Source of the DNA: a virus
DNA length: 64,000 bases
Reading direction: 5' to 3' (one strand)
Virus record (IMG/VR): IMGVR_UViG_3300041964_000014
Location: 1-64,000 of that record
This document shows, in pieces, positions 300-64,000 of this stretch. Both the position numbers and the translations under genes were made by a program. Each line of letters opens with the position of its first letter. Position 1 is the stretch's first letter. Below the pieces are notes generated by a model. The model worked only from the letters and a program-made list of their open reading frames with translations. It was not told the origin of the DNA and made no database searches.

Positions 300-571
300 A
301 ACTACTATTATTTAACAGCTGCTTTATTATACTTATATTCTACGGGATTTAATTTTCTGCTAGGATAAGTAGGTTTAATGTATGTCCGAAAATAATCACC
401 ACGATATTTGTTAGCGGCGAAGTTTTAACTATATTAGGAGGAACACCCATATACGAATACACGCTATATTCTTTGCTAGTTTTAGATCTACTAAAAACTA
501 GTGTTAATACGTTTAACATTTCGTTGTAACTATAAGCACTAATAAAACTGTCTTTAATTGAGGTAAAATCT

Positions 572-805
572 GTGACCATAACTACTGCTATTACTATTTA
601 TTTATCTATAGGTTTATTGCACGGAACTACTGCGGCTATTTTATCTATGGCTTTGAGTGTATTTGGATTAGGGGGCTGGAAAGTAGTACCCCCTATAAAG
701 ACCTTTATACTATGGACACTATTGTACCCAGTGTTAATAGTAATAGGTTTAATAGCGGTTATTTTTGATAAGTTAGGGATCACTATAGTAATATACAAAG
801 ACTAA
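572..805 (+). CDS. Small membrane protein
   Basis: Two long hydrophobic segments. Confidence 0.5.
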   Translation: MTITTAITIYLSIGLLHGTTAAILSMALSVFGLGGWKVVPPIKTFILWTLLYPVLIVIGLIAVIFDKLGITIVIYKD

Positions 806-1249
806 TATGGAACCTATTTATAGAGACTATAACTGTACCCTTACACAAAAGAACTGTACTAAGCTACTACAAAGTTTAGCTATTAGTGGGGTAGTATAAC
901 TTCTCAATTTACACTATGTAAAAACTATCCCGTAAATACTGTACATACTTGGGAAATGTTCTTTCGCTTACGTTTTATTAATCAATCTAGCTTAGACAAG
1001 TTCCATAGCTTAGGTATAGTTACCAAAGAAGTGGAAAAAATAATAGCTAATTAAGGCACGTATGTCAGATACTGAGTTACCTCGTGGTCCAGCGACTTCG
1101 CAAGAAATTGCTGCCTTTAACGAGTATATGAAACGCAAAAGAAAACTTAGAGAAACCGTAGATAAACAAAATAACGATATTTCAAAGAAATAAGTACATA
1201 TAATAAAAGACCCCGTTAGAGGTCTTATTGTTTTATTTGCTACACAGTA

Positions 1250-2011
1250 CTATTCCAGTCCCAACACTATTTTGGCGGCTCGTTTTAAGTAACGGAGTTC
1301 CAATAAGTTACGGTTAGTACCTTGTTGTTTCGGACAAGCCTTTACATTCTTGCCTCCGCGTTGAAAACCACCTGCCCAGTGAGCTATACGACGACTTTGT
1401 GAATTATCAATACCATAAGCAGAACAGAAATCGATAGCCGTCATGAGTCGGTTGTCTATTTCGTTTTCTAGTTGATCTACTAAAATATCGGCACACCCTG
1501 GCTGAATTTCAGCTGCACGGTCAAACTCGCGTTCTTGTTGTTCGAGTTTGTCTAATCTTTGAGTACGTTCGGTTAATAGATTTATTGCTTCTCGTTGTTG
1601 TTGAAGCTCTGTTGCCATTTGTTGAATGATATTTCCAATATTTTGAAGATGATTATATTGAGTAAGAAGAGTAGTTTTCGCATTAGCAAAAGCTTTAACT
1701 AAATTAAATTTAGCTTCTACTACTTGTTCCGTATTGCTACTAAGCGTCATTAGAAATGTCGCCTGATTTTCGTTTAGTAAATAATAAACTTCTCCACCAG
1801 TTCCATCACTTAATTTTGGGCTGGTTTCTCGTAATAGCCTGCTGCGGTTCTCTCCCGCCACAGGGTTAAGAGCCTCGTCTACCAGGCTTTCCAGCCTTTC
1901 CGTATACTTAGAAATTGTCTCTTTGAAGCTCTTATGTAGAATACCCAAAGCTTCGGCTACTAAACGGGAATCCACCAATAACTGTCCACCGACGTTTTGA
2001 ATTTCTAACAT
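1250..2011 (-). CDS. Rha-family phage regulatory protein
   Basis: N-terminal VDSRLVAEALGILH...YYLLNENQATFLMTLSSNTEQVVEAKFNLVKAF is typical of Rha, followed by a coiled coil. Confidence 0.85.
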   Translation of the reverse strand: MLEIQNVGGQLLVDSRLVAEALGILHKSFKETISKYTERLESLVDEALNPVAGENRSRLLRETSPKLSDGTGGEVYYLLNENQATFLMTLSSNTEQVVEAKFNLVKAFANAKTTLLTQYNHLQNIGNIIQQMATELQQQREAINLLTERTQRLDKLEQQEREFDRAAEIQPGCADILVDQLENEIDNRLMTAIDFCSAYGIDNSQSRRIAHWAGGFQRGGKNVKACPKQQGTNRNLLELRYLKRAAKIVLGLE

Positions 2012-2119
2012 GATACAATAAAGTAAAGTAAGCTGTTTTACACATAGCCACTTGAGTCAGTTAATCGCTCTTGTGGCTGTTTTAATGTTAACATATTATT
2101 GTTGTTGTTATGTGGCTAT

Positions 2120-2266
2120 ATGAAAGCGAAAAGGTTACATATTCTCATGAGTGAAAAAAGATTAAATAAATTACGTGCTTTAGCTAAACAGCGAGAAAAA
2201 ACTATGACCAGCTTAGTTGAAGACTGGATAGATAGTTTGCCTAATCCAGAATCGTTAGATGTATAG
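2120..2266 (+). CDS. Ribbon-helix-helix (CopG/Arc-like) protein
   Basis: Translated by hand: MKAKRLHILMSEKRLNKLRALAKQREKTMTSLVEDWIDSLPNPESLDV. Divergent from the Rha gene. Confidence 0.75.
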   Translation: MKAKRLHILMSEKRLNKLRALAKQREKTMTSLVEDWIDSLPNPESLDV

Positions 2267-2581
2267 CCTGAAATGCCCGTGGTTGTCGGTTTGACAGAAA
2301 TGCTGAAAGTTAAATCAGCAAAACAAAGCCGGGAGTCCAAAATAAACAGGAGTTCCCGGCTTACTAGTATATTGTTGAAATTTAGTCTGTGTATCCTAAG
2401 CTCTTAAGAAAATAACGTACATCATTGAAACTATCGAAGATATGCTCTCTATCAGATGTCGGATCTTCAAACCGTAAGCAATACTCGTTAGCAGTTACGT
2501 TGTAAGTTAATACAAAATTTTTCTTGGTATGCATAGGTGCTTTTAAACTATTATATAGTTATTACAGTGTAGCTTAAAGCA

Positions 2582-2884
2582 ATGTCTTATGTAGAGCCTT
2601 TAGTTAATGATTTGAAACAAGAGTATCAAACTATGCTACGAAAATATTGGGCATCAAACATAGTAATACCTTCTAATAGATATGTGTACGGTTATCCTGT
2701 GTTACCGCCTCATTTGGAATACGAGGTTACAGTAAGTTACAAAGACGGATTTCCACGGGTAACTAAACGTATAGCTACAAATATCTCCAAACAATATTTA
2801 GAGCCATATCTTCCAGAACCTCCCGAAGAAGTCCGAAAACAACAAGAAGCCGGAAAAGAGATACTGGCACTGTTTAGTAAATAA
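2582..2884 (+). CDS. Hypothetical protein
   Basis: 100-aa ORF followed by a hairpin. Confidence 0.55.
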   Translation: MSYVEPLVNDLKQEYQTMLRKYWASNIVIPSNRYVYGYPVLPPHLEYEVTVSYKDGFPRVTKRIATNISKQYLEPYLPEPPEEVRKQQEAGKEILALFSK

Positions 2885-61967: not shown

Positions 61968-61974
61968 TTACAAG

Positions 61975-62097
61975 ATGAAGTGTCAACATTGCGGTAGTAG
62001 CAATCTTAGTTTCGTGCAAATAATCACTATGTACTCTAAAAAGTACAAGGATTATAGATGTAACGATTGTCGTAAGAACACAGCCTTCACAGCATAA
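61975..62097 (+). CDS. Small zinc-ribbon protein
   Basis: MKCQHCGS...YRCNDCRK. Confidence 0.55.
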   Translation: MKCQHCGSSNLSFVQIITMYSKKYKDYRCNDCRKNTAFTA

Positions 62098-62102
62098 ACA
62101 TA

Positions 62103-62333
62103 ATGGAAACTCTCCACAGTCCTAACAGTGATGTATTTAAGTTTGCAGTATTTGATGAAGTGAGTTTCGCCATGTTAGCTAATGTGGCTAATAAATTGTA
62201 TTTGTATCGGGGGATAACCCCGAAAGTCTGGAAAGAGTTGCTAGCAGCTGAAAGCAAAGGTAGGTATTTCAATGTGCAAATTAAAGATCGGTATCAGACT
62301 ACGGAGTTAAATAGTCTGGATATTGTGAAGTAA
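62103..62333 (+). CDS. KTSC domain protein
   Basis: Y.Y.G.....W.ELL.AESKGRYFN..IK..Y. Confidence 0.85.
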   Translation: METLHSPNSDVFKFAVFDEVSFAMLANVANKLYLYRGITPKVWKELLAAESKGRYFNVQIKDRYQTTELNSLDIVK

Positions 62334-62396
62334 CTTGCTTACTACGGGAAATTTCTTCGGGGTGTCTACTATTTACTTACCTAAGGGAGTTATATC

Positions 62397-62882
62397 ATGT
62401 CTACGAATCTTACACTCGACCAAGCCAAACAATTTGCTCAAGCGTTACCCTACGATAGTAACTTAAGGGTAGTTGTCGCTAGTACTGAGACTTATAAGCT
62501 CGTTAATGCTGACGAGTATGCGCCGCAACCGGGAGAATCGTATTGGGCAACAACACCTAGTGTAATAAGTCAGATTCAGAATCGATTTCCTGAAGGTTAT
62601 TTGTCTGGCAACTCATGTATCAAATTAATTAAGTTGCTTCGGACTATTGACACCAACTTAGGACTTCGCGAAGCCAAAGATGTTGCCGACTACTTACTTC
62701 CATCCATAGAGGCGACAAAAGAAAAGTGGAAACAGCAAATCTCAGATAGCACTGCCTTACAGGACAATAAGTTTTTTGGTTGTGATGCCTCCGCTTTGGA
62801 AGACTTAATTGAAATACTCACGAATGATCAGCTTAATTCCGAGGATGTGAAAGAAATTGTGAATGTATTAATCGGTAAGTAA
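62397..62882 (+). CDS. Protein with ribosomal L7/L12 CTD-like motif
   Basis: IKLIKLLRTI...LGLREAKDV.D. Confidence 0.55.
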   Translation: MSTNLTLDQAKQFAQALPYDSNLRVVVASTETYKLVNADEYAPQPGESYWATTPSVISQIQNRFPEGYLSGNSCIKLIKLLRTIDTNLGLREAKDVADYLLPSIEATKEKWKQQISDSTALQDNKFFGCDASALEDLIEILTNDQLNSEDVKEIVNVLIGK

Positions 62883-64000
62883 ACGTTAAGCAAAGAGTCC
62901 GAAATAACAAGACACTTATTTATTTCGGACTTCTGCATTCCTATTCCAAAAGGAGATTTCTATGTTGGTGCCTAATGTTGCCAGATGTATACGCAGCTTG
63001 TTTTCTAAGCCTCCTTTGCATTTGAAGCATTCCGATTGGAGCTATGTATTTAAGTGTTCATCTGGGTACGTAATCGCGGGCATCCCTTTATCGGAAACAA
63101 CGCGAATTCCGTCGCATAGCTTACTTGTAGAACTTTACGCGGATGAGAAAGGAGACTCGTATCACTTTGGTAAGTTTGCTGACGGCTCAGTAATACAACT
63201 CAATCCGGTACATTGGTCAGAAACACCTCCACAGCTAGTTTGGCATCCCCCTGATTTTGATATTTGGGATAAGTTATCTGTAGCAGGATTAGCTCCGAGA
63301 TACCCTAAAGAGCAAATAGATAAAGCTTGTCAAGCCGAGAAAACACTTAAAGAAGCTTACTCACAGTATGAAGCCACAATGAAACAGTTGGGAGCTGAAC
63401 TAGTAGATGAACGTTGGGAAAACTTGGAATGCTATCAATTTCCTACCCATCCGTTAATAGAGTTTTATGCTGACTCCGAATTAGGAGAATAAGTTTATAT
63501 GAATATCCGTATAACTGCCAAGAAAGTACTGTGGGCTTCAGTGCATAGAACTGGGGAGTCTAAGCTTCAAGCGGGAGAGTCAGCCACAATTACCAAAGCC
63601 GTGGTAGCTCACCCGACTAATCCTCTGTATGAGGTGACTAAAGCGGATGGTAAACAATTTGTGGTGTATCGTGACGATTTAGTTGAATGTGGGGCTTTAG
63701 ATAGAATACCGGAATGATGTAATAGTCCGAAACAATAAGGGTGTGTTTGCTACTTCCGATGTTGTTATTTAATGGTAAGGAGTTACTAATGACGGCTACC
63801 GTAATATACGTTGCGAGTTTAGTGGTATTAAAATTAGATGGTACTATTCACACTAAACCAGTTATTAGTAACCCCGCAGCTTATTCCTCCTTGTCAAGTT
63901 TTGTTGAGAGTTGTGTTACCAATATTAAAAGTGTGGCGGAGTTTAGTAATACTAAAATAGTGGGTTGTTTTGCTCATGAGGTACTCGATATTAGTACTGG

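Follow-up and report, generated by a model that had tools for sequence, protein, structure and literature searches.

The genome of an uncultured cyanophage-like virus, represented by a 111-kb contig of which the 64,000-nt window analysed here is a part, raises the question of why a single short word should recur along it about once per kb, and what might read it. The initial annotation had put the number of copies at about 55 and judged this to be far above chance, and both statements were borne out. The window contains 59 exact copies of GTCCGAAA (31 on the plus and 28 on the minus strand; Table 1) against 0.86 +/- 0.85 expected from dinucleotide shuffles, and the 13-mer as it was first written occurs 20 times against 0.01 expected. 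The complete 111,188-bp contig has 101, 52 on one strand and 49 on the other, where 1-2 are expected, and the word ranks first among all 8-mers. The excess persisted against both backgrounds that had been proposed as checks, a Markov model of order 1-3 with the copies masked (1.3-1.8 expected in the contig) and a synonymous-codon shuffle (64 intragenic copies observed, 6.4 expected). The 24 one-mismatch variants summed to 43 in the contig against 45-54 expected, which is background. A distant relative with 52% amino-acid identity, G001, carries the same core 85 times (0.8-1.4 expected; one-off variants 37 against 43-52), with 52 intragenic copies where codon shuffling gives 3.3. The enrichment is confirmed, and is real, sharply defined and stronger than had been stated.

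The full word consists of H-GTCCGAAA followed by six A/T-rich nucleotides and GG, some 17 nt in total; A/T makes up 76-100% at positions 6-14, C seldom occurs at positions 10-16 and none of the 101 copies has G at -1. Copies occur in every reading frame, and those at a depth of over 60 nt within genes, on both strands, number 40 in this genome and 40 in G001. Comparison with G001 showed that sites originate by substitution, without insertions or other indels. Since the strands are equally used, all frames are represented, copies lie deep in genes, the codon-shuffle excess is large and sites arise by substitution, the word is a DNA-level signal and not a peptide, an RNA or a mobile element, and its likening to genome-wide signals of the Chi or uptake type holds. 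Genes were called with a simple in-house ORF/codon-score caller rather than a standard gene finder. Gene junctions are enriched in words, those on the sense strand peaking at stop codons and antisense ones 10-70 nt upstream of start codons. The claim that the word supplies gene ends was sound, the PK-stop ends at 8500, 10135, 42853, 44680 and 54141 being real, and several antisense copies encode the LFISD of a shared N-terminal leader. Words would sit at the least costly places, namely intergenic spacers, gene ends with TAA as the stop and tolerant codons such as SE(I/T), VR(N/K) and (L/I/V)SD. The copies said to lie in essential genes (31277, 38634, 40041 and 49496) are indeed inside long ORFs, but the scaffold, MuF and TerS names given to these found no support in Pfam or PHROGs. 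Conservation in relatives, another of the proposed checks, applies to the core and not to its positions, as more than 90% of intragenic positions differ between this genome and G001 and two intragenic sites are common to both.

Table 1. Word cores and tail-to-tail word pairs in the window.
Feature	Position	Strand	Context
core	384..391	+	antisense in ORF 349-579(-)
core	1328..1335	-	sense in ORF 1250-1975(-)
core	2831..2838	+	sense in ORF 2582-2884(+)
core	3006..3013	-	intergenic (in-house gene calls)
core	4072..4079	+	intergenic; tail merges into Shine-Dalgarno-like AAGGAGG
core	5727..5734	-	intergenic
core	6008..6015	+	intergenic; start at 6033 follows after 18 nt
core	7161..7168	-	sense in ORF 7088-7804(-)
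core	8500..8507	+	forms PK-stop end of ORF 8352-8510(+)
core	8814..8821	-	antisense in ORF 8770-9027(+)
core	9089..9096	-	antisense in ORF 9060-9245(+)
pair 10050+ / 10135-	10050..10142		canonical G+C-rich terminator hairpin between the two copies
10135 copy		-	provides PK-stop end of LAGLIDADG+HTH endonuclease gene 10132-11238(-)
core	13795..13802	-	sense in ORF 13590-14294(-); aligned G001 codons lack word
core	14043..14050	+	antisense in ORF 13590-14294(-); not in G001
core	15346..15353	+	antisense; LFISD, shared N-terminal leader of ORF 14431-15369(-)
core	15682..15689	-	at beginning of ORF 15419-15691(-)
core	17413..17420	-	sense in ORF 16551-17504(-)
core	17597..17604	+	antisense in ORF 17497-17883(-)
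core	19356..19363	-	sense in ORF 19168-19446(-); not in G001
core	22081..22088	+	antisense in ORF 22040-22540(-)
core	22716..22723	+	antisense in ORF 22624-24354(-)
core	24667..24674	-	sense in short ORF 24651-24824(-)
core	24801..24808	+	antisense; LFISD leader of ORF 24651-24824(-)
core	26511..26518	+	intergenic; 4 nt before start of opposite-strand ORF 25487-26506(-)
core	27369..27376	-	sense in ORF 26944-27771(-)
core	28131..28138	-	sense in ORF 27917-28984(-); G001 matches 7/8 bases
core	31277..31284	-	sense in ORF 31194-32156(-); not in G001
core	31806..31813	+	antisense in ORF 31194-32156(-); not in G001
core	33835..33842	+	intergenic (in-house calls); G001 has word at aligned place
core	35840..35847	+	antisense; LFISD leader of ORF 34628-35863(-); G001 6/8 bases
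core	36241..36248	+	antisense; LFISD leader of ORF 35860-36264(-); conserved in G001
core	36431..36438	-	sense in ORF 36261-37550(-)
core	36788..36795	+	antisense in ORF 36261-37550(-)
core	38634..38641	-	sense in 1118-aa ORF 37534-40890(-); one of the two intragenic sites common to G001
core	38845..38852	+	antisense in ORF 37534-40890(-); not in G001
core	40041..40048	-	sense in ORF 37534-40890(-); not in G001
pair 41398+ / 41434-	41398..41441		between convergent HU/IHF-like gene 41021-41371(+) and ORF 41526-42404(-); syntenic with G001 pair 17202/17252
core	42694..42701	+	within or near weak ORF 42577-42732(-)
core	42853..42860	-	6 nt before stop of ORF 42847-43431(-); PK-stop end
core	43378..43385	+	antisense; LFISD leader of ORF 42847-43398(-)
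core	44680..44687	-	forms PK-stop end of ORF 44677-45180(-); not in G001
core	45912..45919	+	sense in RecA/Sak4-like ORF 45352-46281(+)
core	49496..49503	-	sense in ORF 49258-49866(-); G001 6/8 bases
pair 51146+ / 51197-	51146..51204		between ORFs 50384-51136(+) and 51294-53789(+)
core	54141..54148	+	forms PK-stop end of ORF 53930-54151(+)
core	54773..54780	-	antisense in ORF 54585-55007(+)
core	55014..55021	+	intergenic; directly past stop of ORF 54585-55007(+)
pair 57015+ / 57044-	57015..57051		intergenic
core	59173..59180	+	sense in ORF 59098-59343(+)
core	60388..60395	-	intergenic; start at 60413 follows after 17 nt
pair 61397+ / 61425-	61397..61432		intergenic
pair 62897+ / 62923-	62897..62930		intergenic
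core	63725..63732	+	intergenic; directly past stop of ORF 63499-63717(+)

Within each strand the word is evenly spaced. Gaps between copies on the same strand have a coefficient of variation of 0.59 and 0.60, where random placement gives 0.97 (P<1e-4) and a gene-structure-aware null 0.96 +/- 0.09 (P<1/3000); permutation of the strand labels gave P<1e-4, and no two copies on one strand lie closer than 275 nt, the null median for the smallest gap being 53 (P=0.0003). All of these results were replicated in G001; in two further relatives, G009 and G006, strand-wise spacing was only weakly significant. Mean same-strand spacing is 2.2-3.3 kb, with the largest gaps reaching 5-8 kb. Opposite-strand copies less than 100 nt apart have a strict polarity, 22 pairs in this genome and G001 being convergent (tail-to-tail) and none divergent. 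These pairs (13 here and 9 in G001, several of them syntenic) lie at gene junctions and form stems of 12-20 bp with -14 to -35 kcal/mol; the remaining 75 copies (of 101) are singletons whose best partner arm does not exceed chance, and no close pairs were found among the words of G009 and G006. Even per-strand spacing and tail-to-tail polarity favour an enzyme that acts directionally on a single strand over the symmetric genome-organising protein that had been suggested. The word is a DNA signal kept by selection and read along one strand in one direction.

From the observed spacing, pair polarity, position turnover and word statistics, together with a predicted protein fold, we infer, at a probability of about 0.4, that the word is the preferred start site of the phage's own T7-gp4-type primase in lagging-strand synthesis. 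The primase gene lies outside the window at contig positions 78073-78888, before a DnaB-like helicase gene, and its 271-aa product has a zinc ribbon (CPxC...CxxxxC) and TOPRIM motifs (EGEKC and DxD). Its AlphaFold2 model (pLDDT 94.9) has the T7 gp4 fold, with the T7 gp4 primase fragment 1NUI as top structural match (E 1.6e-6) and T7 replisome gp4, Twinkle and DnaG as further matches, which makes it the best candidate for the reader of the word. T7 primase favours (G/T)2GTC with an 8-nt A/T-rich 3' flank and TA, TG, GA or GG at template 3' positions 9-10, where C abolishes binding, and Okazaki intervals quoted for T7 are 1-6 kb (Zhang et al. 2026, PMC12839067). The word resembles such sites in its GTC start, its A/T-rich, C-poor stretch and the G-rich positions that follow, in being read on one strand, in same-strand intervals within the Okazaki size range and in the presence of a phage primase of the same predicted fold. 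Agreement with the template rule of T7 is loose, as G, favoured with T at -1 in T7, is excluded there and GG stands at 3' positions 12-13, three positions further out than 9-10. T7 sites are also degenerate, whereas the candidate priming sites here have eight exact core bases. To our knowledge T7 itself has no hyper-abundant word and no known primase requires a word of some 17 nt. Along the genome no switch of word orientation was seen of the kind that a single bidirectional origin predicts (singletons 16+ / 14- in 10-50 kb and 18+ / 16- in 51-111 kb), so that priming would need forks passing both ways. A caveat that must be applied to the link between primase and word is that its three genomes are related by descent.

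An unlikely but substantial alternative is that the word belongs to a probably cyanobacterial host, as a Chi-like recombination and repair signal or an uptake-type identity sequence, which the phage gathers to work with a directional host enzyme such as RecBCD/AddAB that would spare or recombine its incoming circularly permuted linear DNA. An exact asymmetric 8-nt core, equally frequent on both strands and evenly spaced along each, would suit a directional end-processing enzyme, and the nearest isolated phages infect Pseudanabaena. Chi itself is likewise an asymmetric octamer with directional reading of a single strand. Chi-rich phages are documented (Bobay et al. 2013, PMC3784561; Zheng et al. 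2025, PMC12315714). Chi is, however, set by the host and 5-8 nt long, and the lambdoid phages rich in it are those without their own Rec module (PMC12315714), whereas this phage has its own exonuclease and two RecA/Sak4-like ATPases, and its conserved ~17 nt exceed any known Chi. HIP1 (GCGATCGC) of cyanobacteria is also an exact octamer in great excess (15- to 300-fold); it occurs within and outside coding DNA, is non-randomly spaced and is maintained by selection, with no known function (Xu, Lawrence and Durand 2018, PMC5861425). A capsid relative of the phage, G007, carries HIP1 itself (139 copies in 83 kb, 1.67 per kb), which indicates that phages of this group can match the word of a host and favours host-specified words; the 71% of that genome that was available showed no replication module. 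HIP1 differs in being palindromic, a host word linked to a methyltransferase (a gene for which was searched for in the phage and not found) and conserved in position between genomes, whereas the present word is asymmetric, spaced strand by strand and not conserved in position.

The uptake sequences of Pasteurellaceae (USS) and Neisseriaceae (DUS) have an 8-12 nt core, in USS with an A/T-rich flank, and occur about once per kb on both strands, in several frames within genes and as inverted pairs after genes; their positions turn over and related lineages have different dialects. The word here shares their core size, density, use of both strands, intragenic copies, inverted pairs, turnover and dialects, but they are carried by competent bacteria and read by the uptake machinery, and the carrier here is a phage. 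The paired form of the word, searched in the genomes of 185,579 species, gave 10 single chance-level matches in unrelated taxa, and a metagenome scan also returned single matches only. A host word also leaves the 22:0 polarity of the pairs unexplained. One capsid relative has ACC(G/A)TAGAAGARAAGG in place of GTCCGAAA, and the word of G009, ACC-GTA-GAAGAAAA-GG, has the same build as H-GTCCGAAA...GG. The asymmetric words of this genome (G000), G001 and G009 share core, A-rich run and GG as well as a homologous phage primase (30% identity in G009), which argues against an origin in the host.

It is rather improbable that the words are sites for a sequence-specific phage protein that organises, compacts, marks or regulates the genome, such as the HU/IHF-like protein (41021-41371), the LAGLIDADG endonuclease with three HTH domains (10132-11238) or an XRE, Rha or Bro-type regulator. 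An exact asymmetric site of ~17 bp would fit a monomeric multi-HTH, LAGLIDADG or IHF-like protein, and word-rich gene junctions agree with this. The LAGLIDADG+HTH gene is flanked by a word pair and restricted to the two genomes with GTCCGAAA; about 100 cleavable homing endonuclease sites in its own genome would, however, be self-destructive. The HU/IHF-like gene scores slightly higher with IHF than with HU models and is followed by a conserved word pair in this genome and G001, but it is present in every relative whichever word is carried, and for the XRE, RHH and Rha proteins also put forward as binders no link to the word was found. A duplex binder would be blind to strand, yet regularity is per strand, the strand labels are non-random, and opposite-strand copies come within 20-50 bp of each other but those on the same strand keep apart. 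Mycobacteriophage (Cluster A) stoperators, which bind the immunity repressor, are asymmetric 13-14 bp sites that a genome carries by the dozen, many of them at gene ends, and are similar in these respects; they have a single orientation relative to transcription, whereas the words, as had been noted at the outset, are mixed in orientation, follow no such rule and often lie deep in genes on either strand. The original observation was confirmed and its interpretation partly supported.

That the unit is instead an intergenic hairpin (a transcription terminator, RNA 3'-end stabiliser or RNase III-type processing site, or a REP/MITE-like mobile palindrome, with single copies as decayed or incipient halves) is very improbable, for although the pairs form junctional stems, several in synteny, and sense and antisense copies cluster at stops and before starts, most copies are the singletons described above, 40 lie deep in genes on both strands, G009 and G006 have words without pairs, sites arise by substitution and not insertion, the spacers inside the pairs contribute little further pairing (P=0.06), divergent pairs would fold equally well yet are absent, no hairpin matched Rfam and a simple scan called no pair terminator-like while finding canonical terminators elsewhere.

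If the word is a priming site, a DnaB-type helicase would travel 5'->3' along the lagging-strand template and the zinc-ribbon/TOPRIM primase would scan the emerging strand before binding the word. The primer would begin at GT, the word's 5' edge, and be extended into the unconserved 5' flank. The tail-to-tail order may mean that each word emerges ahead of its own complement and so cannot hide in a hairpin, and two words, one per strand, would often share a spacer in this order. Selection for primase start sites, we propose, would retain one exact word per ~2.2 kb on each strand of the phage genome.

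The window contains 59 copies of the octamer GTCCGAAA (31 on the plus strand and 28 on the minus), against 0.86 expected from dinucleotide shuffles. With 101 copies it is the top-ranking 8-mer of the whole 111,188-bp contig, an IMG/VR virus record estimated to be 76% complete, the first 64 kb of which form the window. The initial annotation had judged the motif to be far above chance and its own 13-mer was indeed found 20 times, where 0.01 copies are expected. The enrichment survived both Markov backgrounds of orders 1-3 with word copies masked, which predict 1.3-1.8 copies of GTCCGAAA in the contig, and a codon-preserving one, with 64 intragenic copies observed and 6.4 after synonymous-codon shuffling. 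The 24 one-mismatch variants of GTCCGAAA together number 43, with 45-54 expected, and since they sit at the expected level the sites are all-or-none. A text search of the literature for the octamer gave primers only, megablast with 24 kb of the contig gave zero matches to known phages, TerL relatives in IMG/VR were distant, of high G+C and without the word, and neither Rfam families nor tRNAs were detected across the whole contig.

Alignment of all copies gave the consensus H-GTCCGAAA-(T/C)AA(T/A)(A/T)A-GG, with an asymmetric core and a conserved length of ~17 nt. The conserved block opens with the bases GTC, A/T accounts for 76-100% at word positions 6-14, C is scarce at positions 10-16, and positions 15 and 16 are G in 65% and 56% of copies. 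Immediately upstream, position -1 is A in 55%, T in 32% and C in 13% of copies and never G (0/101), and positions -6 to -2 carry nearly zero information. The tail is conserved among copies deep within genes also, and an apparent indel variant (TAATAAGG compared with TAAATAGG) leaves the distance from core to GG unchanged.

An exact-word scan of IMG/VR recovered one other lineage, represented by G001 (a 127-kb contig, 99% complete) and two near-identical fragments. The same octamer is the top 8-mer of G001 (n=85), and the two genomes share 74 reciprocal-best orthologues with a mean amino-acid identity of 52%. When orthologous codons are aligned, the two genomes have few sites in common, just 2 of 27 in the present phage and 2 of 17 in G001. 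The unshared sites are distinguished by base substitutions, frequently non-synonymous ones, and by no indel, and the orthologue alignment of a pair of words inside the primase gene likewise shows substitution without an indel. Some intergenic pairs are syntenic, e.g. that downstream of the HU-like gene. With few sites shared and the same octamer in both genomes, it is the word that is conserved while its positions turn over.

Placement relative to genes was assessed with our own ORF caller. Intergenic copies make up 37 of the 101 in the contig although the coding fraction is 88%; those within genes comprise 38 sense and 26 antisense copies using every frame, and for 40 copies the depth within a gene exceeds 60 nt. 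In a metagene plot of the contig and its relative, sense-strand copies are concentrated from -3 to +50 around stop codons and antisense copies 10-70 nt upstream of start codons. The earlier remark that the motif supplies gene ends holds, a PK-stop derived from the word closing five window ORFs. Five window ORFs start with M(K/R)LLFISD..., whose LFISD is encoded by the word in reverse complement, a small subset that is best regarded as a separate feature; three of the five lie near a 1118-aa head-module ORF and their leader may be a capsid-targeting or cleaved propeptide. A peptide-level reading of the word is excluded, as it occurs in all frames and on both strands and the LFISD leader accounts for only 5 of the 59 sites in the window, and so is a promoter, as the distance to start codons is not fixed and an orientation rule is absent. 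Stoperators have one orientation relative to transcription, whereas the orientation of the word is mixed, as originally reported: in addition to the sense and antisense counts, the singletons (unpaired copies) of an all-plus gene region are 18 plus and 16 minus.

Clusters of the word are spaced more evenly than random and singleton orientation alternates (52 runs compared with 38.5 expected, P=0.0016). The coefficients of variation (CV) of same-strand gaps were 0.59 and 0.60, against 0.97 under random placement (P<1e-4), and permutation of strand labels at fixed positions also gave P<1e-4. A gene-aware null, in which junction copies were reassigned to the starts or ends of randomly chosen genes and deep copies to random intragenic places, gave a CV of 0.96 +/- 0.09 (P<1/3000), and the smallest same-strand gap of 275 nt compares with a null median of 53 (P=0.0003). 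G001 behaved in the same way under the same tests. Same-strand gaps average 2.2-3.3 kb, the shortest being 275-423 nt and the longest 5-8 kb, and our count over word sites revealed no orientation polarity switch along the genome. Copies repel others on their own strand but tolerate one on the other strand at 20-50 bp, and the word is therefore read strand by strand. It is a real and strong DNA-level feature, a phage-lineage word kept by selection.

Two opposite-strand copies may face each other tail-to-tail. There are 13 such pairs in the contig, six of them within the window, with stems of 12-20 bp, and among pairs no more than 100 nt apart in both genomes 22 are convergent and none divergent. 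Beyond the words themselves the inner spacers show scant pairing (P=0.06). Intrinsic terminators have a G+C-rich stem with a U tract directly after it; in contrast, a simple terminator scan passed over all four pairs in 50-64 kb, while calling canonical terminators at other junctions, and the 10050/10135 pair encloses one canonical terminator. Two pairs 0.8 kb apart (contig 83850-83935 and 84670-84755) agree almost completely over ~70 nt of upstream and loop sequence, an indication that a junction cassette on the flank of a 247-aa gene was recently duplicated in place.

Through capsid homologues with 38-51% identity more IMG/VR contigs were reached, and each large one has a hyper-abundant word of its own. 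In G009 (132 kb, IMGVR_UViG_3300015024_000001) this is ACC(G/A)TAGAAGARAAGG, with ~67 mainly intragenic copies on both strands, in two forms that differ at a CpG, CCGTAGAA (n=32) and CCATAGAA (n=35); in G006 (45 kb) it is AACGAAAGA (n=28). The cyanobacterial HIP1 octamer GCGATCGC occurs 139 times in G007 (83 kb), against about 1.35 expected, at a density of 1.67 per kb, and the same enrichment is found in the 15 kb covered of G008. The major capsid protein of the HIP1-rich relative is 49% identical to that of the present phage. GCGATCGC is an iterated palindrome of host type that here reaches a host-like density in a phage genome, and phages are not mentioned in the HIP1 literature examined. 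The nearest isolated phages by capsid protein have the cyanobacterium Pseudanabaena as host, and the first 50 kb of one, Pseudanabaena phage PA-SR01, contain a weak A-rich word only. The asymmetric words follow one common design, a CpG-containing core followed by an A-rich run and GG.

Coordinates of features in the phage contig and its capsid relatives
Feature	Location	Strand	Length	Remarks
Primase	contig 78073-78888		271 aa	zinc ribbon, TOPRIM motifs EGEKC/DxD
LAGLIDADG endonuclease	window 10132-11238	-		motif YLRGAIEGDGSI; free-standing, fused to three N-terminal HTH motifs
Shared-leader ORFs	window 14431-15369, 24651-24824, 34628-35863, 35860-36264, 42847-43398	-		leader M(K/R)LLFISDI..FAR.KGSKDKKKR
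UvdE UV-damage endonuclease	contig 64506-65423 (L036:506-1423)			Pfam E 3e-59
ThiF/E1-like enzyme	contig 69493-70380 (L036:5493-6380)			
Class II ribonucleotide reductase	contig 90043-93066 (L037:6043-9066)			intein carrying LAGLIDADG domain
Methyltransferases of G009	G009 13947-18345			two C5 cytosine, one N4/N6
HIP1-bearing relative G007	IMGVR_UViG_3300042518_001688 (L125-L129)			
HIP1-bearing relative G008	IMGVR_UViG_3300033979_000663 (L113)			

The leading hypothesis, as yet unproven, is that the word is a start signal for the primase of the phage. By sequence only the primase is weakly recognised (PHROG E 7e-7, Pfam below cut-off, profile against 1NUI E 0.076). An AlphaFold2 model built from 60 of its 1,733 relatives among 1.8 billion representative proteins, many of which are the N-terminal part of 700-1200-residue proteins, had a pLDDT of 94.9, and its best structural matches were the T7 gp4 primase fragment 1NUI (E 1.6e-6), gp4 of the T7 replisome, Twinkle and DnaG. 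The phage is accordingly predicted from the model to encode a primase of the gp4/DnaG type with zinc-binding and TOPRIM domains, and a DnaB-like helicase and a family A polymerase lie downstream of the gene. Homologues are present in G001 (51% identity) and G009 (30%), and protein searches also yielded primase homologues with 50-66% identity and capsid homologues with 45-88% identity on other contigs; in G006, G007 and G008 neither primase nor helicase was found within the sequence covered and these contigs are therefore uninformative on any link between primase and word.

The preferred template of T7 primase is 5'-(G/T)2GTC with an A/T-rich 8-nt 3' flank and then TA, TG, GA or GG at 3' positions 9-10, where C abolishes binding, and its usable sites are 1-6 kb apart (Zhang et al. 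2026, PMC12839067). The word has GTC at its start, an A/T-rich, C-poor stretch and GG at its end and, as in the T7 site, where the primer is templated 5' of GTC, its bases on that side (-6 to -2) are loosely constrained. The 8-nt flank is A/T at six positions, and positions 9-10 are mostly TA, AT or AA with C at no more than 9%. The word of G009 has the exact layout GTA, 8 nt and GG. The helicase may also offer a rationale for the 22:0 polarity: moving 5' to 3', it would release the lagging-strand template 5' end first, so that in a tail-to-tail pair the word on each strand would emerge ahead of its complement, whereas with the words head-to-head it would come out after its complement and be sequestered in a hairpin.

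What mainly speaks against the primase reading is that it fits the T7 rule loosely, that the words show no orientation polarity along the genome and that one relative carries HIP1. Unlike the (G/T)(G/T) of T7, G is never found immediately before GTC, and the GG lies at 3' positions 12-13, three further out than the rule. We know of no precedent for a primase word of 17 nt, which also counts against it. In its full form, an 'Okazaki start code' in which a gp4-type primase of unusually long template specificity (~17 nt) co-evolves with ~100 exact words kept evenly spaced on each strand by selection, and related cyanophage-like lineages use dialects of core, A-rich run and GG, the proposal is given a probability of roughly 0.35.

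A Chi-like or host-specified word would fit both the directional reading and the HIP1-bearing relative. Chi, however, is a short host-specified word of 5-8 nt, in contrast to the ~17 nt conserved here. Among lambdoid phages it is those lacking Rec modules that are rich in Chi (PMC12315714), whereas the present phage encodes an exonuclease and two RecA/Sak4-like genes. The paired form had 10 single matches in unrelated taxa among 185,579 species (one genome each), about the chance number, and metagenome contigs gave single matches only; as far as the paired form can tell, the word is not a host repeat. USS/DUS are hyper-abundant in naturally competent bacteria and read by the uptake machinery, whereas the carrier here is a phage. 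HIP1-type words are palindromic octamers associated with DNA methyltransferases, unlike the asymmetric word here, and PF00145 and PF01555 (C5 and N4/N6 methyltransferases) had no match in the present contig or in the 99%-complete G001, on which ground a methyltransferase or repair ratchet driven by the phage is rejected.

Recognition by a duplex-binding architectural or regulatory protein would leave the strand-wise spacing unexplained. The HU-like protein, an early candidate binder, loses its appeal because an HU/IHF-like gene occurs in every relative whatever the word. The LAGLIDADG endonuclease, syntenic in G001 (41% identity) and missing from the other capsid relatives, is an unlikely reader because it would have ~100 targets in its own genome, and a nickase can be discounted by inference, as opposite-strand copies 20-50 bp apart would yield double-strand breaks. 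A hairpin-only or mobile-element reading, including REP/MITE/RPE-type mobile palindromes, fails on the 75 singletons and on the origin of sites by substitution, without indels in orthologue alignments.

The present analysis adds an independent genome, a gene-aware null, positional turnover and all-or-none sharpness, together with pair polarity, the primase fold and the differing words, HIP1 included, of capsid relatives. To our knowledge the choice of start sites by replicative primases in vivo has so far been poorly defined. If the primase reading is true, the phage would offer a natural setting where the genome itself reveals the preferred sites, so that site choice and primase-template co-evolution could be tested using short oligonucleotides and an enzyme of 271 residues. 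Should it be wrong, the word would remain a rare example of one that is private to a virus, maintained by selection and spaced strand-wise, and its relatives, one of them with HIP1, could help to solve what such words do in cyanobacteria.
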